64,000 bases of DNA. Source: Patescibacteria group bacterium. Lineage in GTDB: Bacteria; Patescibacteriota; Patescibacteriia; XYB2-FULL-38-15. The position numbers were made by a program, and so were the translations under genes. Positions within the stretch are counted from its first letter, which is position 1. Every line of letters begins with the position of its first letter. Below the pieces are notes generated by a model. That model was given only the letters and a program-made list of their open reading frames with translations. It was not told the origin of the DNA and did not search any database. The stretch lies in the NCBI GenBank assembly GCA_041737355.1, contig JBGSRW010000008.1, forward strand, positions 91,700 through 155,699, given 5' to 3'. Positions 3,874 through 30,761 of this stretch are shown here, piece by piece.

Positions 3874-6501
3874 ATGCTTCCGCAAAATTTTACCACCAAA
3901 TCGCAAGAAGCTTTACAAGCTGCTCAGGGATTGGTTTTTGAATACAATCATCAATATTTGGATCCTCTGCACTTGCTTACGGCGCTCTTGGACCAACAGG
4001 GAGGAATAGTCGCTTCCCTTCTCCAAAAATTGGGCGCTAATGCTCTAGATATAAAACAACGGGCTATGCTGGAATTGCAGAAATTGCCAAAACAGACCGG
4101 CCGGCGTCCGGGCGGAGCGGCCCAGATGAACGTTGGCCAAGAAATGGTCCAGGTTTTTTATACCGTGGAAAAAGAAGCCAAGAAAATGAAAGATGATTAT
4201 ATCAGCACCGAGCATTTATTTTTGGGTCTTCTTTCTGTAAAAAGCCGGGCAGGAGACATTTTGGCGGAGGCGGGTTTGAATTATGATCAGGTTTTAAAAG
4301 TTTTGGCCGAAGTCCGCGGTACGCAAAAAGTTGATTCTCCCGAACCGGAAGCCAAATATCAGGTTTTGGAAAAATATACGGTCAATCTGACAGAGCTTGC
4401 CCGAGGGAAAAAACTGGATCCGGTCATTGGCCGCGACGAGGAAATTCGCAGGGTCATGCAAGTTCTTTCCCGCCGGACAAAAAATAATCCGGTGTTGATT
4501 GGCGAGGCCGGCACCGGAAAAACAGCGATCGTTGAAGGTTTGGCGCAAAGAATTGTGGCTGGCGATATACCTGAGAGCTTGAAGGACAAGGAATTAATTT
4601 CTCTTGATCTAGGATCACTGCTTGCCGGAACAAAATTCCGCGGCGAGTTTGAAGATCGCCTGAAAGCTGTTATTAAAGAAGTCAAACAAGCCAGCGGAAA
4701 AATAATTTTATTTATTGACGAACTGCACACTATTGTCGGTGCCGGCGCAATCGAGGGGGCTATGGATGCTTCCAATATGCTGAAACCTGCTTTAGCCCGC
4801 GGTGAACTCCACACCATCGGCGCGACAACCACCAAGGAATATCATAAATATGTGGAAAAAGACGCAGCCTTGGAACGGCGCTTCCAGCCGGTTTTTGTCG
4901 GCGAGCCATCGGTTGAAGATACTATTGCTATCCTGCGCGGCATCAAGGAAAAATACGAAGTGCATCACGGCGTAAAAATTACTGATGCGGCAATTATCGC
5001 AGCAGCGACTCTTTCCCATCGCTATATCTCTGATCGGTTTTTGCCGGATAAAGCGGTTGACTTGATCGACGAAGCCACTTCCGCTCTCAGAATGGAGATT
5101 GACAGTATGCCTACCGAACTCGACCAACTGAAAAGAAAAATGATGAAATTCGAGATTGAACGGCAAGCTCTGCTTAAAGAAAAAGACACGGGGGCCAAGG
5201 ACGAACTAAAAAAAGTAAACAAGGAATTAGCCGAGCTTCAGGAAAAATCCAAAGAGCTGGAAATCGGCTGGCGCTATGAAAAAGATTTAATCAGCCAGAT
5301 CCGCAAGGCGCAAAAACAAATTGATTATTCAAAGCAGCAGGCCGATATTGCCGAACGCAAAGGCGAACTGGAAAAAGTCGCGGAAATCCGTTACGGAAAA
5401 GTTCCTGAATTGGAAAAAGAAATTAGGACACTTGAGAAAAAATTAAAGAAAACCCCCGACGAAAAAAGAATTCTTCGGGAAGAAGTTACCGACGAAGATA
5501 TTGCCCGGGTTGTCTCGCGCTGGACTGGAATTCCGGTGACAAAAATGCTCCAGGGCGAAATTGAAAAATTGGCTCATGCTGAGGAAGAACTCGAGAAAAG
5601 AGTCATCGGACAAAAAGACGCAATCAAAACCATTGCCAACGCCCTCCGCCGTTCACGGGCCGGGATATCTGAAGAAAAGAAACCGATCGGTTCCTTCATT
5701 TTTGTCGGTCCGACCGGGGTCGGTAAAACCGAATTGTCTAAAGCCTTGGCCGAATTTATGTTTAACGACGAAAACGCGCTTGTCCGGGTTGATATGTCGG
5801 AATATATGGAAAAGCACTCCGTAGCGCGGCTTGTCGGTTCCCCTCCCGGCTATGTCGGCCATGAAGAAGGCGGACAATTGACCGAGGCAATCCGTCGACG
5901 GCCGTATTCGGTTGTTCTTTTTGATGAAATCGAGAAAGCCCATCCGGAAGTCTTTAATATCTTACTTCAAATTTTAGATGACGGACGCTTAACCGATGGC
6001 CGCGGTCGGACCGTGAATTTTAAAAACTCTATTATTATTATGACCTCGAATCTCGGCAACCAGGTTATCCGTGATTTTTCCATTGGTTTCCGGGACGGCG
6101 AAAATAAAGAAGCAAGCCGCGACAATGAAATGCGTGACAAGATTATGGAAATTCTTCGTGAAACCTTCAAGCTTGAATTTTTGAACCGTATTGACGAAAC
6201 TGTAATCTTCAAAAGTTTGGGCAAAGCGGAAATCGGAAAAATTATAGAATTGCAATTGGCCGAAGTTCAGAAACGGCTTGATACCAAAAAGATAAAATTG
6301 GAAATTGCCGAGCCGGTTAAAAAAATGCTCGCGGAAAAAGGTTTTGATCCGATTTTCGGCGCCCGACCGCTAAAGCGCGTAATTCAGAATATGATTTTGG
6401 ATGAATTAGCCCTGCGAATCATTGAAGGAAAAGTTAAAGACGGTGATAAAGTCGTGATCGGACTGGATAAAGATAAAAAAATCACTTTCGAGATTAAGTA
6501 G
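3874..6501 (+). CDS. clpB: ATP-dependent chaperone ClpB
   Basis: 875 aa. Two AAA+ modules (GEAGTGKT and GPTGVGKT Walker A) and a long coiled-coil middle domain. ClpB N-domain present. Confidence 0.95.
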
Positions 6502-6541: not shown

Positions 6542-6577
6542 AAAAAAAGGCCGACCCAGGCGAGGTTTTGAGGCCTC
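6542..6577 (-). terminator. Terminator of cassette B (minus strand)
   Basis: aggcc...ggcct hairpin preceded on the plus strand by an A7 run. Confidence 0.5.
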
Positions 6578-6598
6578 ATCATGAGTCGGATCGCGGAA

Positions 6599-6997
6599 TT
6601 ATTTGCGCCGCCTCGGTCGTATGCGGGGCGCATTACGAGCCGTCAATTTTTTGAGAGCAGCTCTTTCTGCTTGACGGCACCTCTTCTCAAACAATCGTTT
6701 GAAGTCATCATCATTGTAGTTTTCATGCCAACTGCCGTCGTCATCGCGATAGCGATAGAAGCTCCTAGCGAAAGCAGGCGAGATTGAATTTCTTTGGCAG
6801 GGTGAATCGAGCCCGAATTGGTAAATGAGGACGCAGGTACCATCTTCACCAAAACGAAAATTGTACTCCTCCGCCTCGCGAGCCGCCTTAACAGCAAATA
6901 CGATGTCCTTAGTCACGAGAAAGGGTGTTGTAAAATTTCTGTCGGGGGCTTCTTCGAAGCCCTTCACTTTGTGGCACGCGATTACTACGTAATACAT
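6599..6997 (-). CDS. Hypothetical protein with basic C-terminal tail (GC-rich cassette B)
   Basis: GAGGAGG SD before the ATG at 6997. A TTGACA -35 (plus 7041-7046) lies upstream. 132 aa, MYYVVIACHKVKG..., no family recognised. Confidence 0.45.
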   Translation of the reverse strand: MYYVVIACHKVKGFEEAPDRNFTTPFLVTKDIVFAVKAAREAEEYNFRFGEDGTCVLIYQFGLDSPCQRNSISPAFARSFYRYRDDDGSWHENYNDDDFKRLFEKRCRQAERAALKKLTARNAPRIRPRRRK

Positions 6998-16372: not shown

Positions 16373-16422
16373 ATAGCGTAGCCTGGACAATCTCGTTTGG
16401 GCTAAAAAGGAGGGTGTAAGGG

Positions 16423-16890
16423 ATGAATTCCCGACTGGAGAGACTCAAGGTTACAATCGAGAAGTGCGAGAAGATCGAGGAGATCTTCACCCGGCAGCAC
16501 GTCCGCGGAACGGAGCCAAAACACTACGACGACGTGATCGCCGGTTTCGACGCTCCAGCGCGAAGCGGTTTTCTCTTGGGGTGGGATCTCGTGGTCAAGG
16601 GTTCGGCCGGCCACAGAGAAGACCTCCTGGGGCGAGAACCGACCTGCATCGAGATTTCTCTCTCCGGCGGGGAGCGGGGCGACCGGCTGATCATCATCTC
16701 CTACCTCCCAGAGACCCGCGGCTGGACGGTCGAAGGATCGACCGATATCGGTCTGGACGGGACTCCGGCCGTCCGAAATCTCGCTGCCGACTGCCGTCTT
16801 TCGGCCGGCGAGACGCGCCAAATCGGCGAGGACGAGGCGATGAAGATCATCGCCACTATCTGCGCTTTCTACAGGGCGCAGCCGGTCTAG
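16423..16890 (+). CDS. Hypothetical protein, 155 aa (cassette F)
   Basis: Strong SD. G+C-rich. Hairpin terminator (gccgact/agtcggc plus T-run) at about 16912-16956. No family recognised. Confidence 0.45.
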   Translation: MNSRLERLKVTIEKCEKIEEIFTRQHVRGTEPKHYDDVIAGFDAPARSGFLLGWDLVVKGSAGHREDLLGREPTCIEISLSGGERGDRLIIISYLPETRGWTVEGSTDIGLDGTPAVRNLAADCRLSAGETRQIGEDEAMKIIATICAFYRAQPV

Positions 16891-16946
16891 CTAGACCGCG
16901 ACCGACGGAGGAACAAACTATCGCCGACTTTTGAAGCGCAAGCTGA

Positions 16947-18507: not shown

Positions 18508-18601
18508 ACTATTTTGTTTATTATAGCCGATTTCGCTCTTGAAAACAAGGTTTTGGCTGATGGCGGTTTAGTGCTATAATAAATCAGCGAGGAGGAAGCA
18601 A

Positions 18602-18802
18602 ATGCCAAAAATTGAGGAGGGTTGGCAAAACGGTTTTCCTATTCAGCGCGGTGATTACGATCATCCGCCCTGCGCTCTTGACGATAAAGGCCATTGCGGT
18701 AAGGAAATTCCGGGAGAAAACGACCCACTCTACGACGAACGGGATGGATTACCAAAATCGCGGAAACACGTAATGCACGACAAGGAAAAGGAGGAAGGGT
18801 GA
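18602..18802 (+). CDS. Small His/Cys-containing protein, 66 aa (cassette G, gene 1)
   Basis: TGcTATAAT extended -10 at 18572-18580 and GAGGAGGA SD before ATG 18602. G+C-rich. Confidence 0.4.
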   Translation: MPKIEEGWQNGFPIQRGDYDHPPCALDDKGHCGKEIPGENDPLYDERDGLPKSRKHVMHDKEKEEG

Positions 18803-19017
18803 TCTACCGAGAACAAGTCAAAGTTGTCTTGCGCGCTACTGGCGGCTGCGGTTATCATGAAGAAACCGTAATCAGCTTTCGTGTTGAAGCCGCTAGTATC
18901 GAAGAGGCTAAACACAAAGTAGAAAAAGATTGGGCCGGAATGGCCGCAGCTTGGCACGAACAGGAGGGATGCAATTGTAGTGGCATCCTTGAAACCGTTT
19001 TCCGTTGGGACGAGTAG
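18799..19017 (+). CDS. Small protein, 72 aa, GTG start overlapping the upstream stop (cassette G, gene 2)
   Basis: GTGA overlap implies translational coupling. AAGGAGGAAGGG lies upstream. CGYH and CNCSG Cys motifs. Confidence 0.35.
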   Translation: MIYREQVKVVLRATGGCGYHEETVISFRVEAASIEEAKHKVEKDWAGMAAAWHEQEGCNCSGILETVFRWDE

Positions 19018-19052
19018 ACCACACTGATGGCGTTAGGTGTGGTCTTTTTTTA
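19016..19052 (+). terminator. Terminator of cassette G
   Basis: gaccacac / gtgtggtc hairpin with T7 run. Confidence 0.6.
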
Positions 19053-19054
19053 TT

Positions 19055-19094
19055 TTATAAAAAAGATCCACCAAGGCATGGACCAAAAGTGGAT
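19055..19094 (-). terminator. Terminator of cassette H (convergent with G)
   Basis: gatccac / gtggatc hairpin. A-run on the plus strand gives a T-run on the minus strand. Confidence 0.5.
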
Positions 19095-19129
19095 CAACGG
19101 AATAAGTATGCGGTTGTACCATTCGCGGT

Positions 19130-19564
19130 TTACTTTACAGGGTAGAACTCCACGTTGTCGCCGCTGATTTCCGCGTAGAACATGCTGACCGTGACTCCGG
19201 GAAACCGTTCGAGCAAGACGCCGCGCGCGATTTTCAGGTCTTCGACTTGCACCGCCTTCTCTTCAGCCGGACTCTTAAAAACCGCCGATCCGCCGTAGGC
19301 TCCGCAATCACGGTGGGCGATAAGAACGAGCTCCTTGGCGTGGTGCAGGACAATTGACACCTTCTCGATAGCTCCGAGAAAAATTTCCTTAGTTGCTTCG
19401 TTGGCCAGAACTTTCGGTCCCCCCGGATGGACATACTGGTCGAATTCGTCGAAGCCGAGTTCCCGGCTGATGAATTGTTCATGCTGAGTTCGAAACCGCG
19501 GATCGAGACAGTAGATGACGGCCGCGGGAACGTGGTGAAAATTTTTGAACGGATACTGCTGCAT
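19130..19564 (-). CDS. Beta-class carbonic anhydrase-like protein, minimal 144 aa (cassette H)
   Basis: CLDPR (CxDxR) and HRDCG (HxxCG) zinc-ligand motifs about 65 aa apart. GGAGGAGG SD. G+C-rich. Sits immediately 3' of atpC. Confidence 0.45.
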   Translation of the reverse strand: MQQYPFKNFHHVPAAVIYCLDPRFRTQHEQFISRELGFDEFDQYVHPGGPKVLANEATKEIFLGAIEKVSIVLHHAKELVLIAHRDCGAYGGSAVFKSPAEEKAVQVEDLKIARGVLLERFPGVTVSMFYAEISGDNVEFYPVK

Positions 19565-19666
19565 ATTTTTATCCTCCTCCTAACCCCTCCCTCGCCATTC
19601 CCTCGAAAAAATTCAAGAGAATGGATCGTGAGGCGTTGGAAGAGTCGTATTAATGTTTTTTTAATT

Positions 19667-20113
19667 TTACTCCTCAATTCTGATACTCGGCGCAGTTCTT
19701 GCCCGGCTTCGCTTCCGCGCTACCTTCAGCCTTGCCAATTCCCGCTCGAGGCCAGCCATGGCGTCGGCGTATTTTTCCGCATCGATATGTTTTTCTTCAA
19801 GAATTTTTTGGGCTCGTTCGCGGGCTTTTAAAATTTCTTCTTCAACCAATTCTTCAGCCTTTTCCGCGGTATCAGCCAAAACCAAAACTTTATCCGGGGT
19901 AATTTCGATAAATCCACCCGAGCAGGACATGGCAATTTCCTCTCCGCTTTTTTTTACCAAAAGCTCTCCCGGGCGCAAGACGGCGATCAGGGGAATATGG
20001 TTTGGTAAAACCGTAATTTCTCCTTCGGCGGTAGGAATTGTCACCTGGTCAATTTCCTCTTTTAAAACCACCCGTTCGGGAGTAATGATTTCAAATTTTA
20101 ATTTTGAAGCCAT
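19667..20113 (-). CDS. atpC: F1 ATP synthase epsilon subunit
   Basis: N-terminal beta-sandwich (KLKFEIITPE...) followed by C-terminal helices. Last gene of the operon. Confidence 0.85.
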   Translation of the reverse strand: MASKLKFEIITPERVVLKEEIDQVTIPTAEGEITVLPNHIPLIAVLRPGELLVKKSGEEIAMSCSGGFIEITPDKVLVLADTAEKAEELVEEEILKARERAQKILEEKHIDAEKYADAMAGLERELARLKVARKRSRARTAPSIRIEE

Positions 20114-20133: not shown

Positions 20134-21528
<1,395 letters not shown>

Positions 21529-21534
21529 TTAATG

Positions 21535-22443
21535 TTATTCCAAGGCTGCCTTACCGCTCACAATTTCCATTATTTCTTTTGTGATAGCAGACTGGCGAAC
21601 TTGGTTATAAGTTAAAGTTAAGTCAAAAATCATGTCTTCCGCCGAATCCGAGGCATTTTTCATCGCAACCATTCTCGCAGAGTGTTCTGACGCATTTGAT
21701 TCTAAAACTGCCTGAAAAATTTGTATTTCCGCCATTTTGGGCAACATATATTCCAAAACTTGATCGGGCGAAGGTTCAAAAATAAATTCGTGTTCCTTTT
21801 CTTCATTTTTTTCTGGTATTTTTTCTTTACTCACTTTTCCCAAATCCGGATCTCGTTCTCGGGAAAAAGGCAAAAGTTTTAAAATTCTCGGCCGCTGGGA
21901 AATAGTAGAAATAAAATCGGTGTAAGCAAGATAAACTTCGTCGTATGTTCCCGCGGAAAAATCGTCAATCACTATTTTTGCGACAGCTCTGATTTCCGCA
22001 AGCCGCGTCACACCGCTCAAATTAGTAAAATCAGCCACGAGTTTCATCTTATGGCGAGCTGCAAAATCCCTGCTCTTTTTTCCTACGGTTATAAACTCTA
22101 TTTCAATCCCCTTTTCCGTCAAACTTCTGGAAAATTCCGCGATTTTTTTTATAATTTGCGCGTTGAATCCTCCGCAAAGACCGCGATCAGAAGCGACAAG
22201 AACCACACAAACTTTTTTAACTTTATCTTTTTTAGTAAGAAAAGAATGAAGTTTGGAATCTGTTTTCCCCGCTAAATCGGAAATCAAAGACCAGGCCCGG
22301 TTGGCGTAAGCGCGTGTCGCGAGTGTCGCCTGCTGGGCTTTTCTCATTTTTGAAGCCGCCACCATTTCCATCGCCTTGGTAATTTTTTTGGTATTGGTAA
22401 TGGATTTGATGCGTCTTCTTATAATTTTTGTGGAAACGGCCAT
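21535..22443 (-). CDS. atpG: F1 ATP synthase gamma subunit
   Basis: Conserved N- and C-terminal gamma helices (ITKAMEMVAASKMRKAQ...). Confidence 0.9.
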   Translation of the reverse strand: MAVSTKIIRRRIKSITNTKKITKAMEMVAASKMRKAQQATLATRAYANRAWSLISDLAGKTDSKLHSFLTKKDKVKKVCVVLVASDRGLCGGFNAQIIKKIAEFSRSLTEKGIEIEFITVGKKSRDFAARHKMKLVADFTNLSGVTRLAEIRAVAKIVIDDFSAGTYDEVYLAYTDFISTISQRPRILKLLPFSRERDPDLGKVSKEKIPEKNEEKEHEFIFEPSPDQVLEYMLPKMAEIQIFQAVLESNASEHSARMVAMKNASDSAEDMIFDLTLTYNQVRQSAITKEIMEIVSGKAALE

Positions 22444-22482
22444 TTATTTCTAACTAAGTTAAACGTTAAATAAATTTCAACA

Positions 22483-24000
22483 TTAAATACTGCTCTTGAA
22501 ATCCGTGATAGTTGTTTTTAATTTTTCCTCAATCTCCGGCTTTAATTCTTTTTCTTTTGCGATCGCCGCCAAAACTCCTGTCGATTCCGATTTCAAATAC
22601 GCGTGAAATTTATCTTCCCACTCTTTCAATTTTTCAACTGGCACATCATCCAGATAACCGTTGATGCCGGCGTAAAGAATTGCGACCTGATTTTCCATTG
22701 GCATCGGAACATACTGACCTTGTTTTAAAACTTCAGTTAATCTCCTGCCTCGCTCAATTTGTTTTCTTGTAGCTTCGTCGAGATCAGAGGCAAATTGGGC
22801 AAAAGCTTCGAGCTCACGGAATTGCGCCAATTCCAGACGTAAACGGCCGGCAACTTTTTTCATGGCTTTTGTCTGAGCGGCAGAACCGACACGGGAAACA
22901 GAAAGGCCGACGTTTAAGGCCGGACGAATACCTTTGTAAAATAAATCCGATTCCAAATAAATCTGGCCGTCGGTAATGGAAATGACATTTGTTGGAATGT
23001 AAGCGGAAACATCGCCGGCTTGAGTTTCAATAATAGGCAGCGCGGTCAGTGATCCGCCGCCCAAATCAGGATTCATTTTTGCGGCGCGTTCAAGCAAACG
23101 AGAATGCAGATAAAAAATGTCGCCGGGATAAGCTTCGCGTCCCGGAGGCCGGCGTAAGAGCAACGAAATTTGCCGGTATGCCACGGCGTGCTTGGAAAGA
23201 TCATCATAAATCACAAGCGCATCTTTCCCCTGATCCATAAAATATTCTCCCATGGCGCAGCCGGCATAAGGAGCTATAAAAGAAAGCGAAGCCGGGTCGG
23301 AAGCGCCAGCGGCTACGACAATTGTGTGTTCCATTGCTCCAAACTCTTCTAATTTTGCCACCATCTTTGCAATTTTTGATTCTTTCTGGCCAACTGCTAC
23401 ATAAATACAAACGCAATTTTTTCCTTTTTGATTAATAATAGTATCAATCACGAGCGCGGTTTTGCCTGTCTGGCGGTCTCCTATAATAAGCTCCCTTTGC
23501 CCGCGGCCGATTGGAATCATGGAATCAATGGCTTTGATACCAGTTTGAAGAGGGGTTGCAACTTTTTGTCTTGCAATAACGCCTGGCGCGATTTTTTCAA
23601 TTGGATAAAGTTTATTTTCTTTGATAGCGCCCTTACCATCCTTGGGCTGACCAAGGGGGTCGACGACTCTGCCGACAAGATTTTCTCCGACGGGAACGGA
23701 CAAGATCCTACCCGAGCTTTTAACGGTATCGCCCTCTTTAATATGAGTGTATTCGCCCAAAATCATAGCGCCGATAATATCCTCTTCGAGGTTCAGGGCA
23801 ACTCCAAGAACCGATTCACCATCTTTGTCTTTATTTAAAAATTCAAGCATTTCTCCAGCCATACAATCCGATAAACCCGAAACCCTCGCGATGCCGTCTC
23901 CTATTTCCGCGACCCTTCCGACTTTTTCGGTATTAGTCGCTATTTTAGCTTCGGCAATCTGTTTCTTAAGATTTTCAATAATAAAGTTTACTTCCGACAT
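22483..24000 (-). CDS. atpA: F1 ATP synthase alpha subunit
   Basis: GDRQTGKT P-loop, 505 aa. Confidence 0.95.
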
Positions 24001-24004
24001 AAAA

Positions 24005-24421
24005 TTAAAACTGTTTAGTAAGTAAATTATTTTTCAAAATTTTAAATTTATTTTTTAAACTTGCATCAAAAACCGTGTCTTCGCATTCAAGAATAAAGCC
24101 GCCTATCAAATCCGATTCTGTTTTTTTCTCAACGCTTGCCGTCTTGAACTTTTTCCTTAAAAGATCAGGCGCTTCTTTTTTTAACACTTCTATCAAATCT
24201 TCTTTCATCGGCTGAGCCGACCTTATTGTCAAATTAGCGATCCCCTCTTTTTGATTGGCATATTTAATAAAATTTTCTATAATTTGGGGAGCGAATCTTA
24301 GTGCATTATTTCTCGACAGAAGACTCACAAAATTACGCAAAACAGCCTTGGCTTTTTCGCCGGAAAGATCTTTGGTCGCCTCATACAACGATATTGCGTA
24401 CTGTTTTGGTTTTATCTTCAT
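24005..24421 (-). CDS. atpH: ATP synthase delta subunit
   Basis: Position and size within the operon. OSCP-like. Confidence 0.75.
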
Positions 24422-24425
24422 AAAA

Positions 24426-24926
24426 CTATTTTTTATCCGCCTCTCTGAGGCTTTCCTCTATTAATTTTTGCTGCATTTTCCCGTCAAAAGATTTCCCTAC
24501 GACTTTTTCGGCTACCGCTAAAACCAAAATTGCTGCCTCCTTTTTAACTTCAACCATCATCTTGTCCTTCTCTTGGATTATTTGGTTTTTTGCGGCGGTA
24601 ATCAGTTTTTCAACCTCGGCTTTCGTTTTAGTTTTTATTTCCTGTCCCGAAGCCTCGGCTACTCTTTGCGCTTCCTCAACTATAGCCATCGCTTCTTGTT
24701 TTGCTTTTTTTATTTCCCTATCGTGCAATTCCTTAGTTTTTTCCAATTCTTCACCTATTTTTTCCGCGTCGCGAAGACCTTTCTCTATTTTTTCCCTGCG
24801 ATTTTCAAGAAAATTTATAACTGGTTTGTATAGAAATTTGTATAAAACAAAAAATAAAATAAGAAAATTTATAAGTTGGGCGACGAGTAAACGCCAGTCA
24901 ATACCTAGTTTTTGTAATAATTCCAT
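24426..24926 (-). CDS. atpF: ATP synthase Fo subunit b
   Basis: Single N-terminal TM then a long charged helix. Confidence 0.8.
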   Translation of the reverse strand: MELLQKLGIDWRLLVAQLINFLILFFVLYKFLYKPVINFLENRREKIEKGLRDAEKIGEELEKTKELHDREIKKAKQEAMAIVEEAQRVAEASGQEIKTKTKAEVEKLITAAKNQIIQEKDKMMVEVKKEAAILVLAVAEKVVGKSFDGKMQQKLIEESLREADKK

Positions 24927-24994
24927 AATTTTTTTATTAGTTCAAAGTTTTCAACCCACGACATTTATTAGGGCCGCGGGCTGTGAACCGTAAA

Positions 24995-25273
<279 letters not shown>

Positions 25274-25344
25274 CTATCCGCTTTCGACGGAAATATTTTA
25301 TTTAACGTCGGCGATTGACTGTCGTTATTTTAATTTTTTATAAT

Positions 25345-26136
25345 TTAATGCGCTTCGTGCTCGGTAACCGCCATTTTCAAAAATACCAAAGTCAGCATCG
25401 AAAAAACCAGAGCCTGCACAAATCCGACAAAAATTTCCAGAAATAAGAAAGGCAGCGGGACTACATACGGGATCAGGAAACTCACTACCGCCAAAAGAAC
25501 TTCTCCGGCGAAAATATTTCCAAAAAGACGGAAAGAGAAGGATATGAATTTTGCCAGTTCGGCCACAAGTTCTAAAACTCCGGCGAAAAAATAAATAAAA
25601 CCATAGAAGGAGGGCACAGGCAAAAAACCGTACTCTATCCTGAACAATCCTCCGAAAGGTAAAAATTTCTTCCAATATTTAAAAAAACCTATTGTTGCTA
25701 TACCGAAAATCTGGACGGAAAAAACTGAAAATATTGCAATAGCCAGCGTAACATTCAGATCGGCCGACGCCGAACGAATAAAAGGAACTAAAACTTTTTC
25801 GCCATGCAGCTCCTCCCAAATTCCAATTGTTCCGAGGCCGGGCACAATCTCCACCCAGTTGGAGAGAATAACGAAAATAAAAATAGTAAAGACGACCGGA
25901 AAAAATCTTTTTGCTTGTTTACGGTCATGGGTAATGGTTTCTATGAAACCGAGAGCGCCTTCTATGACCGTTTCGGCTACGTTCTGAAGACCTCGAGGTA
26001 TTTCCTTCAAGTTTCTTCTGACCAAAAAAGCAACAACGACCAATAAAAAGACAATAATCCAAGCAACAAGCAGTGTGTTTGTTATAGGAAAAGTCCCGAT
26101 ATGGAAAATTGGCTCTGCAGCCAAGGAAATGTTCAT
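25345..26136 (-). CDS. atpB: ATP synthase Fo subunit a
   Basis: Polytopic. Conserved Arg-containing helix region. Confidence 0.9.
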   Translation of the reverse strand: MNISLAAEPIFHIGTFPITNTLLVAWIIVFLLVVVAFLVRRNLKEIPRGLQNVAETVIEGALGFIETITHDRKQAKRFFPVVFTIFIFVILSNWVEIVPGLGTIGIWEELHGEKVLVPFIRSASADLNVTLAIAIFSVFSVQIFGIATIGFFKYWKKFLPFGGLFRIEYGFLPVPSFYGFIYFFAGVLELVAELAKFISFSFRLFGNIFAGEVLLAVVSFLIPYVVPLPFLFLEIFVGFVQALVFSMLTLVFLKMAVTEHEAH

Positions 26137-26139
26137 ATA

Positions 26140-26406
26140 TTAATCCTGTTTTTCTTTATTCTCCGAATCATCCATAATCGTTATAGTTTTTTTGTATACT
26201 AAAATGGTGGAAACAACCAGAGACAGAATGACGCCAGTTAAAAGAAACCATGGCGAAGTCCCAATTTTTTTATCAATTAATCTGCCCAGAAGCGCCAGGA
26301 GAACCAATGGTATAGCTATGGAATATCCGAGCTGCCAAGCCAGCGAAAGGGCGGACCAAGTTCCCTCTTTCTTAGGTGTAATTTTTTGAGCGTCATTTTT
26401 ATCCAT
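26140..26406 (-). CDS. AtpZ/AtpI-like small membrane protein
   Basis: Two TM, located immediately upstream of atpB. Confidence 0.5.
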   Translation of the reverse strand: MDKNDAQKITPKKEGTWSALSLAWQLGYSIAIPLVLLALLGRLIDKKIGTSPWFLLTGVILSLVVSTILVYKKTITIMDDSENKEKQD

Positions 26407-26579: not shown

Positions 26580-27869
26580 TTAAACCGTATCTCCAATCAT
26601 CTGGCCGCAGCCGCTTCCGATCGGGGTTCCCTTGGAGAGGAAATACTTCACGGCGTAGCCCCGCCCCTCGAGTACCTTGCGGAATCTGCTCCGCGCTTTC
26701 CTCGAAGACGGTTTCATGTCCGATCCCTTAAGCGGGTTGAGCTGCGAAAGCTTGACATAGAAGTGCTTCGGGTCAAGCAGCGCCGCTAGTTCTTCGGCCT
26801 GCTTGCGGGCGTCGTTTTTGCCCTGGACCAAGACGTAATTCACGCATACTTTGTTTGGTGTTGACTGATCACGTCCGGTCACCTCCGCATATTTCCGAGC
26901 CAGCTCAATCGTCTCTTTGAGCGGTCCGCGAACCGGAACGAACCGCGAGCGTAGCTCGTCCGTCGGAGCATGCAGTGAAAGTTGGAGAGTAGCCCACGGT
27001 CCGAAACCCTCCTCCGCCAACTTCCTAAGGCCGGGAAGAAGCCCGACAGTGGAAATGGTAAAGGAAATCCTCTCCTTGAAAGTTTCGCGGAGAGTTTTCG
27101 TGGCTTTCACCACGGCGCCGTAGTTAGACATCGTCTCGCCTTCTCCCATATATGTGATATGGAAAGGCTTCCGGTCATTCAGAACTTCCTGGCCGAAAGG
27201 GCTCCGTCCAAGAGTCTTCCTGACCTGTCCGACGATTTCTTCGGCCGTGAGATTGCGGCCGAATTTCACGCGGCCGGTCGCGCAGAAACGGCAGCCGATA
27301 GTGCAGCCTACCTGCACGGAAACGCAGATAACGTGCTGCACATCACGATAGGTCAGTTTCAACGCGACAGTTTCGATCAGCTGATTGTCCTGAAGAGCGA
27401 AAACGAATTTTTCCGCTCCCAAGCTGACAGCCCTTGCCACGAGTCGGAGCGAATCGTGAGGCAGTCTGCGGAAAGCGCGATCGATCCCTAGCCTTTCCTT
27501 CCTCTGGATGATTGTCCAAAAGTAGCTGAAAGGAGGAAAGGGGCCCGTGATGAATTCAATCATTCCGCCCATGGCCGCTTCGCGGAGCCAAGGAATTTTT
27601 CCGTCCTCTGCGAGGACGAAAATGTCGGCTCGCCGATTTTTTTCCCGCAATTCCCCGATGATGGCCATACTTTCGGGAGAGAGTGAATCTTTATCAGCGA
27701 GAATCACGTTTGCGTCAAGCTTGCCGCCTTCAGCGATTCTCCGAAGCTCCTCTTCGTTCCCGATCGTCTGTACTTCATAGCCCTTGCGCTCAAACAATCC
27801 GACGAGACCGGTCGCGCGCCGGCTATGTGTGATGATTACGCATTTCTGCGTAGTCCTAGCCCTACTCAT
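26580..27869 (-). CDS. RlmN/Cfr-family radical SAM RNA methyltransferase fused to an N-terminal receiver-like (CheY/flavodoxin-fold) domain (cassette I)
   Basis: ICVSVQVGCTIGCRFCATG aligns with RlmN LCVSSQVGCALECKFC. LQLSLHAPTDELR and the C-terminal GSGCGQMIG carry the catalytic Cys motif. N-terminal 130 aa are REC-like but lack the Asp-Asp pair. GGAGAG SD 5 nt before ATG 27869. In-frame alternative starts at 27893 and 27911. G+C-rich. Confidence 0.7.
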   Translation of the reverse strand: MSRARTTQKCVIITHSRRATGLVGLFERKGYEVQTIGNEEELRRIAEGGKLDANVILADKDSLSPESMAIIGELREKNRRADIFVLAEDGKIPWLREAAMGGMIEFITGPFPPFSYFWTIIQRKERLGIDRAFRRLPHDSLRLVARAVSLGAEKFVFALQDNQLIETVALKLTYRDVQHVICVSVQVGCTIGCRFCATGRVKFGRNLTAEEIVGQVRKTLGRSPFGQEVLNDRKPFHITYMGEGETMSNYGAVVKATKTLRETFKERISFTISTVGLLPGLRKLAEEGFGPWATLQLSLHAPTDELRSRFVPVRGPLKETIELARKYAEVTGRDQSTPNKVCVNYVLVQGKNDARKQAEELAALLDPKHFYVKLSQLNPLKGSDMKPSSRKARSRFRKVLEGRGYAVKYFLSKGTPIGSGCGQMIGDTV

Positions 27870-28034
27870 GATTGCTCTCCGACTGAGAAACATGGGGTCA
27901 GGACAACCCACAACCGACCCCCACCTAAGTAGCCTGTCTCGCGACCCGTCAAAGGTGGCGGGACAGACTACTTAGCTTCCGTTTAATTTTATAAAGAACT
28001 TGACCTTTTATCTTGATACTTAAAATCTTAACTG

Positions 28035-30050
28035 TCAACCTTCAACAAAATCAACCTTGTTATCCGGCAGATGAACCGTGAATTGGCTTCCAACATTCAA
28101 TTTACTCCGCACATCGATATACCCGCCGTGAGCCTCGGCGATTGATTTACAAATAGCAAGCCCCAAACCGCTGCCGCCAATAGATTCCCTGGTGCGAACC
28201 TTGTCAACGCGATAAAATCTCTCGAAAACGAAAGGAGCTTCCTCTTCGGGAATTCCTATCCCGTTATCTTCCACTGTAACCCTAGTTTCTCGGGCGTCTG
28301 TCTCCGCCTTAATCTTTACCCACCCGTTTTCCTTGCCGTATTTTATGGCATTAGAAACGAGGTTTAGGAGCATCTTTAAAAATTTATTTTCATCAATCAA
28401 AACATTTATCCTGTCTCCGGCCGCGGCCGATTCTATTTTTATATTTTTTTCTTTAGCTAGAATTTCCATTGACTGAACCGCGGTCTTGATCAAATTTTCC
28501 AAATTAACGGTTGTTTTTTTTAAATTAAGCTTTCCCGCTCCCGCGTGAGTAAGAATCATCAAGTCGGCTAAAATTCCCGACATATGCCCGACCTCTTCAT
28601 CGATTACTTTCAGTGTTTCTCTCAATTCCTTCCCTGTTGCCTTTTCGTCCCATAAAGCTATATCCAGATTACCCTTGATTATTGTGAGAGGAGTCCGAAG
28701 CTCGTGCGAAGCATCGGCTATAAACTGGGATTTCAACTCAACGGCCTTCGCTAATTTATGATTGGCTACCTCCAATTCCCCGGTTCTTAAACGGACTTTT
28801 TCTTCCAGGGTTTTATTCAGATCCTTGACTTCTTCGTAAAGTTGGCTGTTTACGATGGCGATAGCTGCGTTGTTAGCCAGGGTAGTCATCAATTCCATAT
28901 CCGTATCCTTGAATCTTTCAACTTCGTCGCTGTCTATTTTTATTACCCCTATAACTTTTTTATCTAATAAAATCGGCACGGCTAATTCCGATCTCACGCT
29001 CTCCATTTCCGGCTGACCTATGTAATATGGATCGTTTTTTACGTCGTTGCTGCAATACGGCTGCTTGATAAACGCGGCATGCCCCGAAAGACCCTGCCCT
29101 ATTTTTATTTTTATTTTTTGCCAGCCGGGCGGCATATTGTACGCTTCCTTGAGGGTAAGCTCGTTTTCATTTTCAAGCAGCAAAATCGCACCACTGACAG
29201 CGTTGGTCAGTTTTACGGCATTTCTTAAAATCAGCCAGAGAACTTCTCCGAGATTCAAGACGGAGTTGATCGCTCTCGAAACCTGATTAATCAGATAAAG
29301 TTGCCTCGCTTGATTCTTGACTGCCTCCATGGCGTAAAACGCCTCGGTATTGTCCTGAGCGATTGAAATTGCACCCTCAATATTTCCATTTTTATCTTTA
29401 AGGGGAACTGCGTAGATATCTATATATTTAGCCAGCTTATCGGAAGAAGCCTGATAATGACAATTATAATGCCTGAAGGCGATGCCATGCTCCAGGAGAT
29501 TTTTGTATTTTTCGTGCAGTTCGTTTGATTTTTTGACAAAAGAAAAATCAAAAATTTTTTTGCCGGTTCTTCCGGTCGGAGGTTTCTCGGCCAGAATATA
29601 AAAATACGGATTTACCGAAACGACTCCCCCGCCTTTGTCGAGGGTAACAATACTTACCGGAACATTTTCTATTATTTTTTCGTAAAATTCACTTATTCTG
29701 TCCCCCTCTTCTTTTATTTTTTGCAATTCTTTTTCCGTTTGCAGCCGCCTCCTCATAGCTAGTCTTCCCTTGCAATAAAGAAGCGAACTCAGGATGAGCG
29801 TCAAGACAGACAAGCCAACCCAGAAATGATTGATGAAAGTTAGAAAAGGAACCTGCCGGCCAAAAACTTCCAAATTCTCCCAGGCGATAAATTCATTTTC
29901 CGCATAAAGTTCCAGAAAATAAAATATTCCCAAAACCCAGCCAACGCTGCTTAAAAGATAAAAGAGCCAGTAGTCGCTAAAATGCGTCCTGGTTCTATCA
30001 AAAATATTCTTGCAGGAATTCTGCAAATCAATTTTAGGCCAAGGTTTCAT
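28035..30050 (-). CDS. Sensor histidine kinase (TM, GAF, HisKA, HATPase_c)
   Basis: H-box ASHELRTPL, G-box GGSGLGLAI, N-terminal TM helices and a GAF-like region. Confidence 0.85.
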   Translation of the reverse strand: MKPWPKIDLQNSCKNIFDRTRTHFSDYWLFYLLSSVGWVLGIFYFLELYAENEFIAWENLEVFGRQVPFLTFINHFWVGLSVLTLILSSLLYCKGRLAMRRRLQTEKELQKIKEEGDRISEFYEKIIENVPVSIVTLDKGGGVVSVNPYFYILAEKPPTGRTGKKIFDFSFVKKSNELHEKYKNLLEHGIAFRHYNCHYQASSDKLAKYIDIYAVPLKDKNGNIEGAISIAQDNTEAFYAMEAVKNQARQLYLINQVSRAINSVLNLGEVLWLILRNAVKLTNAVSGAILLLENENELTLKEAYNMPPGWQKIKIKIGQGLSGHAAFIKQPYCSNDVKNDPYYIGQPEMESVRSELAVPILLDKKVIGVIKIDSDEVERFKDTDMELMTTLANNAAIAIVNSQLYEEVKDLNKTLEEKVRLRTGELEVANHKLAKAVELKSQFIADASHELRTPLTIIKGNLDIALWDEKATGKELRETLKVIDEEVGHMSGILADLMILTHAGAGKLNLKKTTVNLENLIKTAVQSMEILAKEKNIKIESAAAGDRINVLIDENKFLKMLLNLVSNAIKYGKENGWVKIKAETDARETRVTVEDNGIGIPEEEAPFVFERFYRVDKVRTRESIGGSGLGLAICKSIAEAHGGYIDVRSKLNVGSQFTVHLPDNKVDFVEG

Positions 30051-30083
30051 CTGACCTTGTCGTTATCTTCGGATGCCAAAACA

Positions 30084-30761
30084 TTATTTAACATCCTGAA
30101 TTATTTTATAGCCTACGTTTCTGACCGTTTTGAGCAATTGGAGGGAGCGACCGCCATCGACTTTTTTGCGAAGGTTGCTCACCGATACGTCAATAACATT
30201 GCTGCTATCAACAAAATTATATCCCCAGATGTGTTCGCCGATCATTGTTCTTGTACAAACCTGCCCCGGACGACGCATAAAGTAATCAAGCAAACGATAT
30301 TCTTTACTCGTTAAGGGCACAGCTTCGCCGGCCCTTGTCACTTCGTGAGTAGCCGGATCCAAAATCAAATCTGAAATTTGTAAAACCGATCTTTTGACGG
30401 TTTTTTCCCGACGCAGAAGAGCCCTGATTCTGGCCAGAAGTTCTCCAAAAGCGAACGGTTTAACAACATAATCATCAGCGCCTTGGTCAAGCCCGCGGAT
30501 ACGATCTTCAATCGTGTCTCTGGCAGTAAGCATTATGATGGGTGCGTCTATTTTTCTTTCTCTAATCTCTTTGCAGACTTCAATCCCGTCTTTTTTTGGT
30601 AACATCAGATCCAAAATAATCAGGTCGTAATCATTAACCCCGACTTTTTTCAAGGCTTCTTCTCCGTCATAAGCCACGTCAACGGTATAATGCTCCATCT
30701 CAAGGCCCCTTTGAATGAAGCGGGTGATTTTGTATTCGTCTTCGACTACTAGGATGGTCAT
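30084..30761 (-). CDS. OmpR-family response regulator
   Basis: Receiver with DE...D and K, plus a winged-helix C-terminus. Confidence 0.9.
   Translation of the reverse strand: MTILVVEDEYKITRFIQRGLEMEHYTVDVAYDGEEALKKVGVNDYDLIILDLMLPKKDGIEVCKEIRERKIDAPIIMLTARDTIEDRIRGLDQGADDYVVKPFAFGELLARIRALLRREKTVKRSVLQISDLILDPATHEVTRAGEAVPLTSKEYRLLDYFMRRPGQVCTRTMIGEHIWGYNFVDSSNVIDVSVSNLRKKVDGGRSLQLLKTVRNVGYKIIQDVK

Follow-up and report, generated by a model that had tools for sequence, protein, structure and literature searches.

A putative carbonic anhydrase gene of the PF20393 family at the end of the ATP synthase operon in Patescibacteria, and a strain-variable two-gene insertion beside it

The window analyzed here is a 64,000-nucleotide (nt) stretch of the genome of a Patescibacteria group bacterium (contig JBGSRW010000008.1, positions 91,700 to 155,699), and the genes in question lie where its F1Fo ATP synthase (atp) operon ends. 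The window has a G+C content of 44%, and the genomes nearest to it, assembled from metagenomes, bear the label Patescibacteria or Candidatus Falkowbacteria. The operon is complete and runs on the minus strand from 26406 to 19667, with a gene for an ATPase_gene1/AtpI-like protein first and atpC last. Specifically, open reading frames (ORFs) and Pfam matches (subunit c, ATPase_gene1) place ATPase_gene1 (AtpI/Z-like), atpB, atpE, atpF, atpH, atpA, atpG and atpD at 20134-26406, followed by atpC, encoding the F1 epsilon subunit, at 19667-20113 (PF02823, E-value = 7.6e-27). After a spacer of 102 nt comes, on the same strand, the gene referred to here as H (19130-19564), which encodes a protein of 144 amino acids (aa) with a Pro_CA_2 domain (PF20393), the minimal fold of a beta-class carbonic anhydrase (beta-CA), the residues Cys19, His84 and Cys87 and an Asp21-Arg23 dyad, according to its ORF, its Pfam match and its structural model. 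Convergent to H, on the plus strand, lie two small genes, G1 (18602-18802) and G2 (18799-19017), and beyond them two GT2 glycosyltransferase genes at 18507-17809 and 17807-16947, both on the minus strand. A first-pass annotation of this DNA had described H and G1/G2 as a "convergent cassette pair"; ORF and motif checks found the ORFs, the Cys/His motifs, the GTGA overlap of G1 and G2 and a T7-promoter-like string all where it had placed them, and the position of H directly downstream of atpC was likewise borne out. The pair itself came apart in the comparison with relatives, where G1/G2 proved to be a true variable insertion and H did not: judging from gene order, H is no cassette, and many, and divergent, lineages of Patescibacteria keep it as the gene that ends the atp operon.

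The protein encoded by H belongs to a known family. It matches PF20393 (Pro_CA_2, "putative carbonic anhydrase") with 41.2 bits (E-value = 2.3e-10, gathering threshold 30 bits), a score far beyond chance, over residues 14-132, which cover profile positions 6-116 of 125, and it carries the motifs C19-L-D21-P-R23 and H84-R-D-C87-G88. A word-indexed search led to 34 homologues at 58-100% identity, all with PF20393 except one truncated fragment of 95 aa, and each of the 32 aligned orthologues matched the family. The name carbonic anhydrase has been given to one of the homologues by NCBI and is already carried by some records of close homologues. The NCBIfam search with H gave no match, and no solved relative was found in the PDB by sequence, either with H alone or with the family profile. 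A profile search of 1.84 billion cluster representatives (E-value ≤ 1e-3) retrieved 2,085 clusters, 711 of them at E-value ≤ 1e-10, and nearly all the clusters matched hold proteins of 135-155 aa; the 144 aa of H, considered unusually short at first pass, are therefore the normal length in a family of more than 2,000 clusters.

Concerning conservation, we compared 123 family representatives with no more than 26-47% identity to H. Invariant across this diverse set are D21, R23, G48 and C87 (H numbering), and C19, D42, H74, H84, D86, G88 and Y90 are at least 90% conserved. Both family-wide motifs, C-x-D-x-R and H-x-D-C-G-A-Y-G-G, are found in the single domain of H. With a length in the family range of about 125-150 aa and all the family-wide conserved residues of PF20393, nothing sets H apart from that family.

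The AlphaFold2 (AF2) model of H, built on the orthologue alignment, has a predicted local distance difference test score (pLDDT) of 95.5 and a predicted template modelling score (pTM) of 0.90. It presents a beta-alpha-beta core in which C19 ends strand 1 and H84 ends strand 3, and the top 50 Foldseek matches in the PDB are all beta-CAs (best E-value = 1e-5, query-normalised template modelling score 0.45-0.62). A profile search for the beta-CA fold had been set beforehand as a check, and hhalign supported the fold by aligning the family profile with Escherichia coli Can (annotated K-12 record) at a probability of 80% (E-value = 1.4e-5). In this alignment C19, D21, R23, H84 and C87 of H fall on C42, D44, R46, H98 and C101 of Can, its zinc ligands and Asp-Arg dyad in the ECCA structure. 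PF20393, Foldseek and hhalign thus agree with the first-pass annotation, which had called H beta-CA-like with both zinc-ligand motifs in register. That H is a member of Pro_CA_2 with the beta-CA fold is, in our view, close to certain, and its conserved ligands suggest that it binds zinc. No signal peptide was detected in H, so the protein should be cytoplasmic.

In codon composition H is an outlier, with a G+C content at third codon positions (GC3) of 0.65 compared with 0.39-0.45 in atpC, atpD, atpA and the GT2 genes. The same is seen in the orthologous loci L001 and L003, and the situation is reversed in L005, where the orthologue has 0.28 and an adjacent paralogue 0.68. Some distant members of the family have additional parts. 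A lipoprotein signal is found in P0075 and a signal anchor in P0066, the 905 aa of P0069 include two Pro_CA_2 domains fused to BspA-type leucine-rich repeats (LRRs) and a Hint domain, and the N-terminal coiled coil of P0124 resembles the ATP-synthase b and V-ATPase G subunits weakly and below threshold.

Synteny is what gives this otherwise ordinary family member its context. At all 15 orthologous loci (L001-L012 and L017-L019), which carry Pfam atp families in their annotation, the order atpG-atpD-atpC-H-GT2 is kept, with GT2-GT2 downstream; in these loci H is 58-81% identical and atpD 87-96% identical. The gap between atpC and H is just 9-12 nt in L005, L010 and L011. More distant members were found in the same position, adjoining atp genes on the same strand at loci L020 and L021, as P0038 (47% identical to H) stands 2 nt after atpC and P0039 (36%) 53 nt after it, the latter with a different gene downstream. 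On the short contig of L020 (113-2044) the order reads atpG, atpC, Pro_CA_2, with 2 nt between the last two and no atpD between the gamma and epsilon genes, which represents either an unusual atp arrangement or a misassembly. Two records among the orthologous loci, L008 (CAYZNO010000093.1) and L009 (OZ246416.1), are GTDB representatives titled "uncultured Gammaproteobacteria bacterium"; their atp and Pro_CA_2 genes are 78-95% identical to those of the window, and the "Gammaproteobacteria" label is probably wrong.

An unbiased sample was obtained by scanning a metagenome collection for the degenerate DNA motif back-translated from H-x-D-C-G-A-Y-G-G, and all 120 loci returned encode a family member. 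After clustering of the neighbouring ORFs, the three most frequent neighbour families in these loci were atpC at position -1, atpD at -2 and atpG at -3, with no other family close. Outside one tight high-GC lineage, the sample comprises 47 sequences in about 30 clusters, and 27 of its 35 assessable loci are atp-linked: 19 members lie directly downstream of atpC, five on the same strand within 5 kb and three at the 5' end of the operon, either upstream of atpZ-atpB (L039) or divergent from atpZ (L065 and L122). The members adjacent to atpC have a median pairwise identity of only 31%, and their gap to the atpC stop codon is often between -4 and +30 nt. Linked members come from sources named Candidatus Moranbacteria, Magasanikbacteria, Paceibacterota and Falkowbacteria. 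The linkage was seen within Patescibacteria only, where the Uhrbacteria member L015 is unlinked.

The junction between atpC and H has features of its own. Its spacer folds into an intercistronic hairpin (19574-19644, minus strand; minimum free energy -41.5 kcal/mol, z-score -6.6), the 3' arm of which holds the Shine-Dalgarno sequence of H (GGAGGAGG). The hairpin is also present in L001, L003 and L008 (z-scores from -5.4 to -7.1). Over the four sequences (the window and these three loci) 95.5% of cells pair across 28 pairs, and compensatory double changes occur in 9 of the 28, compared with 3.6 ± 1.4 in shuffled alignments (0 of 500) and 0-4 in slid controls. Elsewhere the spacers of L017 and L019 fold into long unrelated hairpins, that of L012 has none and three relatives lack a spacer altogether. 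The Rfam search with the spacer hairpin gave no match, and a dispersed palindromic repeat was rejected as its origin, since the window holds no second copy. The hairpin is followed by AUAAAAAUAUG, the start region of H, without a U-tract; it is thus not a canonical terminator, and the terminator scan reports nothing there. General intercistronic stem-loops, which act in differential expression or in masking of the ribosome-binding site, are similarly stable, lack a U-tract and bury the Shine-Dalgarno sequence in the 3' arm, whereas the hairpin described here is confined to the closest orthologues and has no counterpart in Rfam.

The promoter scan detected no sigma-70-like promoter on the minus strand of the spacer, and the sole terminator of the atp-H unit lies after H (19057-19084, minus strand), where the terminator scan found a stem at 19084-19065 followed by TTTTTTAT. 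This terminator block is kept in the orthologous slots. The earlier suggestion that H, having no recognizable promoter, is read through from the atp operon is therefore the most likely one, given also the 9-12-nt gaps in relatives and the spacer free of a U-tract terminator, and co-transcription of H with the atp genes appears highly probable. The hairpin would then lower the translation of H relative to the atp subunits, stabilize or process the 3' region of the atp mRNA, or both.

At the 5' foot of the hairpin stands the T7-promoter-like 11-mer TAATACGACTC (19642-19652, minus strand, a single match). As a T7 class III promoter it was rejected, because it matches just the first 11 nt of the 18-nt core TAATACGACTCACTATAG and the full core finds no match within three mismatches. 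The string is not conserved in the orthologous spacers either, and the view taken at first pass, that it is coincidental, holds.

Our overall reading, in which we place moderate confidence, is that H is a beta-CA-type enzyme of the atp operon and that G1/G2 represents a separate, lineage-specific insertion of two small genes; H and G1/G2 are unrelated to each other. H would be a cytoplasmic, minimal beta-CA, about 145 aa long, whose Cys-His-Cys zinc site is complete and accompanied by the catalytic Asp-Arg dyad. Its transcription would proceed by read-through from atpC across the conserved hairpin and stop at the terminator after H, and the hairpin, by sequestering the ribosome-binding site, would probably keep the translation of H below that of the atp subunits. 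The likeliest chemistry would be CO2 + H2O <-> HCO3- + H+, and the likeliest role an equilibration of cytoplasmic CO2, bicarbonate and protons that is matched to the amount of proton-translocating F-ATPase; the protein could buffer or provide protons at the cytoplasmic face, or provide bicarbonate. We lean, by a small measure, towards true carbonic anhydrase activity for H, and the substrate specificity is not a property that its sequence reveals.

A functional coupling of H to the ATPase that goes beyond co-expression is suggested by the recurrent linkage, and we hold it only tentatively, as the less probable outcome. Its strongest form would make Pro_CA_2 the ninth gene product and an unrecognized functional partner of the F1Fo complex of Patescibacteria, working at or on the complex by funnelling or buffering protons or by bringing bicarbonate to F1, with its dosage set by the hairpin; this we regard as doubtful. 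Bicarbonate activation of F1-ATPase is a possibility for which the literature search gave nothing usable. A parallel is offered by mitochondrial complex I of plants, which has gamma-class carbonic anhydrase subunits. The shared idea is a carbonic-anhydrase-type protein tied to a proton-translocating, energy-converting complex; the two cases differ in class (gamma versus beta) and in complex (complex I versus F1Fo), and for H the tie is one of genetic linkage alone. The literature searched contained no mention of PF20393 or Pro_CA_2, the hits being to ProcA2 lanthipeptides, and no link of a carbonic anhydrase to the atp operon or, in this sense, to Patescibacteria.

Several observations weigh against the reading of H as an atp-operon carbonic anhydrase. 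On the side of chemistry, no characterized PF20393 enzyme was found in the literature searched, and PF00484, the canonical beta-CA model (threshold 25.7 bits), is not matched by H at E-value ≤ 1 and is matched only below threshold in 17 of its 32 orthologues (best E-value = 0.01). Additionally, the substrate-contacting Gln of classical beta-CAs, nine residues ahead of the first Cys (Gln151 in the pea enzyme, Q33 in E. coli Can), aligns with H10, a His that all the orthologues share and that predominates in the family as a whole. Carbonyl sulfide (COS) and carbon disulfide (CS2) hydrolases have the beta-CA fold as well, and a COS hydrolase is the nearest structure by root-mean-square deviation (rmsd, 2.2 A). 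On the side of the operon, the co-transcription of H is deduced from sequence alone, and a search for atpC fusions among the longer family members (the Rosetta-stone test) found none, these being tandem duplications, exported forms or the LRR and Hint fusion. Finally, the tight high-GC lineage of the motif sample, with 66 sequences at ≥45% identity and a G+C content of 0.51-0.68, is atp-linked in 0 of 45 assessable loci, and some family members are exported, with signal or lipoprotein leaders. The loci L013 and L014, of Bryobacteraceae type, probably represent this lineage. Because it is never atp-linked and because some members are exported, PF20393 is not intrinsically a partner of the ATP synthase.

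The same large unlinked branch and the same exported members favour the alternative that survives best, namely that H is a housekeeping carbonic anhydrase which supplies bicarbonate for carboxylations and hitch-hikes on the strong constitutive atp promoter, with no functional coupling. Its fold and ligands would be equally expected in that case, and genomes of the candidate phyla radiation (CPR) are compact and have many mixed operons. However, the linkage recurs in lineages that are only about 30% identical and whose downstream genes differ, the gene occurs at either end of the operon or divergently beside it, and no neighbours other than the atp genes recur widely. Neutral hitch-hiking is disfavoured because the linkage would not survive such rearrangements, and we consider this explanation rather unlikely.

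A non-catalytic H, acting as an accessory, assembly or regulatory factor of F1Fo with a structural zinc and perhaps as a sensor of CO2 or bicarbonate, would fit the operon context and is improbable on other grounds: beyond the metal ligands the catalytic Asp-Arg dyad is invariant family-wide, no fusions to atp subunits were found, and the exported and unlinked members argue for an autonomous enzyme.

The comparison with solved structures bears on the choice of substrate. H has in common with classical beta-CAs (PF00484; E. coli Can, Methanothermobacter thermautotrophicus Cab 1g5c, pea beta-CA 1ekj) the alpha/beta fold and, as far as the alignments indicate, the Cys/His/Cys zinc ligands and the Asp-Arg dyad at homologous positions. 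It differs from them in being about 25-80 residues shorter, without the N-terminal arm and the C-terminal subdomain, in sharing only 10-18% sequence identity and staying below the PF00484 threshold, in having His in place of the active-site Gln, and in reading "PGGxK" where they have the "RNxxN" segment after strand 2. The clade-D relatives carbonyl sulfide hydrolase (3vrk) and CS2 hydrolase (3ten) give the best rmsd to H (2.2 and 2.7 A, respectively, at 18-21% identity) and have the same set of zinc ligands, but they are proteins of about 200 aa with terminal extensions from sulfur-oxidizing organisms, whereas H lies in the atp operon of a CPR genome of fermentative type. The substrate tunnel of known COS and CS2 hydrolases is built by additional arms at the N and C termini. 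It is thus very improbable that H, instead of hydrating CO2, uses the fold and zinc site to hydrolyse a substrate of the COS, CS2 or cyanate type, since it lacks both arms, has no sulfur- or cyanate-metabolism genes nearby and stands in an atp-operon context that is hard to square with COS/CS2 detoxification.

The second element of the locus is the insertion that holds G1 and G2. The slot between H and the first GT2 gene measures 622 nt in the window and is homologous to the short slots of relatives only over its first ~73 nt and its last ~40 nt, two blocks that stand 3 nt apart in L001; the insertion is therefore bounded at about 18551-19056 and spans ~506 bp, comprising a promoter, G1, G2 and a terminator. 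The promoter scan assigned to it a sigma-70-like promoter at 18553-18580 on the plus strand (TTGGCT, a 16-nt spacer and a TG-extended TATAAT, 10 of 12 positions matching), which is followed by a ribosome-binding site, AGGAGGAAG, at 18589-18597. An intrinsic terminator at 19016-19052 on the same strand consists of a 9-bp GC-rich stem (inverted repeat 19016-19024 / 19037-19045), a 12-nt loop and a T-run, TTTTTTTATTTT. The direct repeat CTGATGGCG, 9 nt long and found close to either end of the insertion, was tried as a target-site duplication and rejected, its occurrence being about that expected by chance in 700 nt. A perfect 11-nt inverted repeat was also observed (18517-18527, TTTATTATAGC, and 18573-18583, GCTATAATAAA), which presents a TATAAT box in each direction; one of them serves G1, the other is located only ~12 nt upstream of the minus-strand GT2 start codon and would make the GT2 mRNA nearly leaderless.

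G1 encodes a small acidic and very hydrophilic protein of 66 aa (isoelectric point, pI, 5.0; grand average of hydropathicity, GRAVY, -1.5), while G2 encodes an orphan of 72 aa that starts with GTG and overlaps the stop codon of G1 (GTGA). The insertion is missing from close relatives, and the pair is known only from the window and from strain L142, whose contig is 96.4% identical over 1,111 nt. Compared with L142, G1 has seven synonymous and three non-synonymous changes and G2 four and one, respectively; about 25% synonymous changes would be expected under neutrality, so both genes look as if they were under purifying selection, although the sample is small. The start codon of G2 changes from GTG to ATG in L142, turning the overlap from GTGA to ATGA, and the accompanying change in the last codon of G1 is synonymous. 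Both genes have the gene-like periodicity GC1>GC3>GC2, and by these signs they are probably real genes. The first-pass annotation is thus upheld in that they overlap and are probably expressed, as the promoter and the substitution pattern suggest. They are not an obligate unit, since a homologue of G1, an ORF of 58 aa with 53% identity over 45 residues, stands in the same slot and orientation in L003/L009 without G2.

The Cys/His clusters noted earlier are present in both proteins and fare differently. The one in G1 (C24, H31-C32, in CALDDKGHCG) is not conserved as a metal site, C32 being Tyr in L142 and Ser in L003. In G2 they comprise C17-x2-H20 and C58-x-C60, and these four residues could serve as metal ligands. 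The only relative of G2 among 5.8 billion clusters is its 99%-identical strain variant in L142. The AF2 model of G2 is a beta-beta-alpha-beta fold with a pLDDT of 71, for which no significant structural match was found (best E-value = 0.19). Searches of G1 and G2 against Pfam, NCBIfam, PHROGs and PADLOC gave noise only (DpnD/PcfM with E-value = 0.033; the lectin OAA with 20 bits at a cut-off of 150), and the window holds no paralogues of either.

Our best guess for the pair, made with low confidence, is a two-gene module of small size and accessory or mobile nature, with a disordered acidic G1 as the partner of a folded and possibly zinc-binding G2; what counts against it is that neither protein is homologous to any described family and that G1 occurs without G2 in L003. 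Two small genes with a 4-nt overlap and their own promoter and terminator in a strain-variable insertion, the first coding for an acidic, hydrophilic protein and the second for one with a predicted fold, would also suit a type II toxin-antitoxin-like module with the disordered G1 as antitoxin and G2 as toxin. That assignment is unlikely, as neither protein matches a family in Pfam, NCBIfam, PHROGs or PADLOC, no structural match was obtained for G2, which is itself acidic (pI 5.1), and L142 is the only relative with both genes, G1's homologue standing alone in L003.

The slot that received the insertion varies widely among relatives. It measures 113-150 nt in L001, L008, L012 and L019, 498 nt in L003 and 964 nt in L017, compared with the 622 nt of the window, and in L005, L010 and L011 it measures 624-669 nt and is filled by a second Pro_CA_2 paralogue (L005 5528-5989, L010 ~6565-6948, L011 ~3930-4310). 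This paralogue has ~150 aa, is 36-48% identical to H and has its ligands intact. L042, L113 and L131 likewise carry Pro_CA_2 in tandem, and the family includes proteins of ~300 aa in which two domains are fused. In L003, an ORF of 60 aa with a predicted transmembrane helix (5664-5846, minus strand of the locus) overlaps the 5' end of the G1-like gene by 50 nt, and the 964-nt slot of L017 contains a different ORF of 51 aa. Flanked by two conserved operons, the slot gives the impression of a hot spot for the gain and loss of small genes.

Apart from these elements, some neighbouring features were recorded. Just upstream of the atp operon, 26580-27911 (minus strand) encodes a radical-SAM protein of 443 aa, the first ~190 residues of which, ahead of the radical-SAM domain, match no Pfam family, and beyond it a PAS-GAF histidine kinase and an OmpR-type response regulator are encoded at 28035-30761. 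At the other side, just downstream of the second GT2 gene, a GC-rich block at 16450-16900 (0.61-0.65, window mean 0.44) has long ORFs on both strands (16402-16821 on the minus strand; 16423-16890 and 16464-16934 on the plus strand), and the minus-strand ORF of 139 aa (16402-16821) has no Pfam match.

Concerning significance, the G1/G2 insertion is real and its interest is local only. H adds a member to PF20393, a known but uncharacterized family, and what it adds is the setting, since the gene closes the atp operon and is preceded by a hairpin in which its ribosome-binding site is hidden. The Patescibacteria, a very large branch of bacteria, have tiny genomes and are mostly uncultured, and it is debated how they keep a membrane potential with an F1Fo complex and little or no respiratory chain. 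A carbonic-anhydrase-type zinc enzyme that lineages with only about 30% identity have kept within or directly next to the atp operon represents a concrete, testable lead in this respect. Should Pro_CA_2 be a partner of F1Fo, it would be the first beta-class carbonic anhydrase coupled to a rotary ATPase. If H equilibrates CO2, bicarbonate and protons for the ATPase, CO2 chemistry would be linked to energy conservation in Patescibacteria, and PF20393 would gain its first physiological context.

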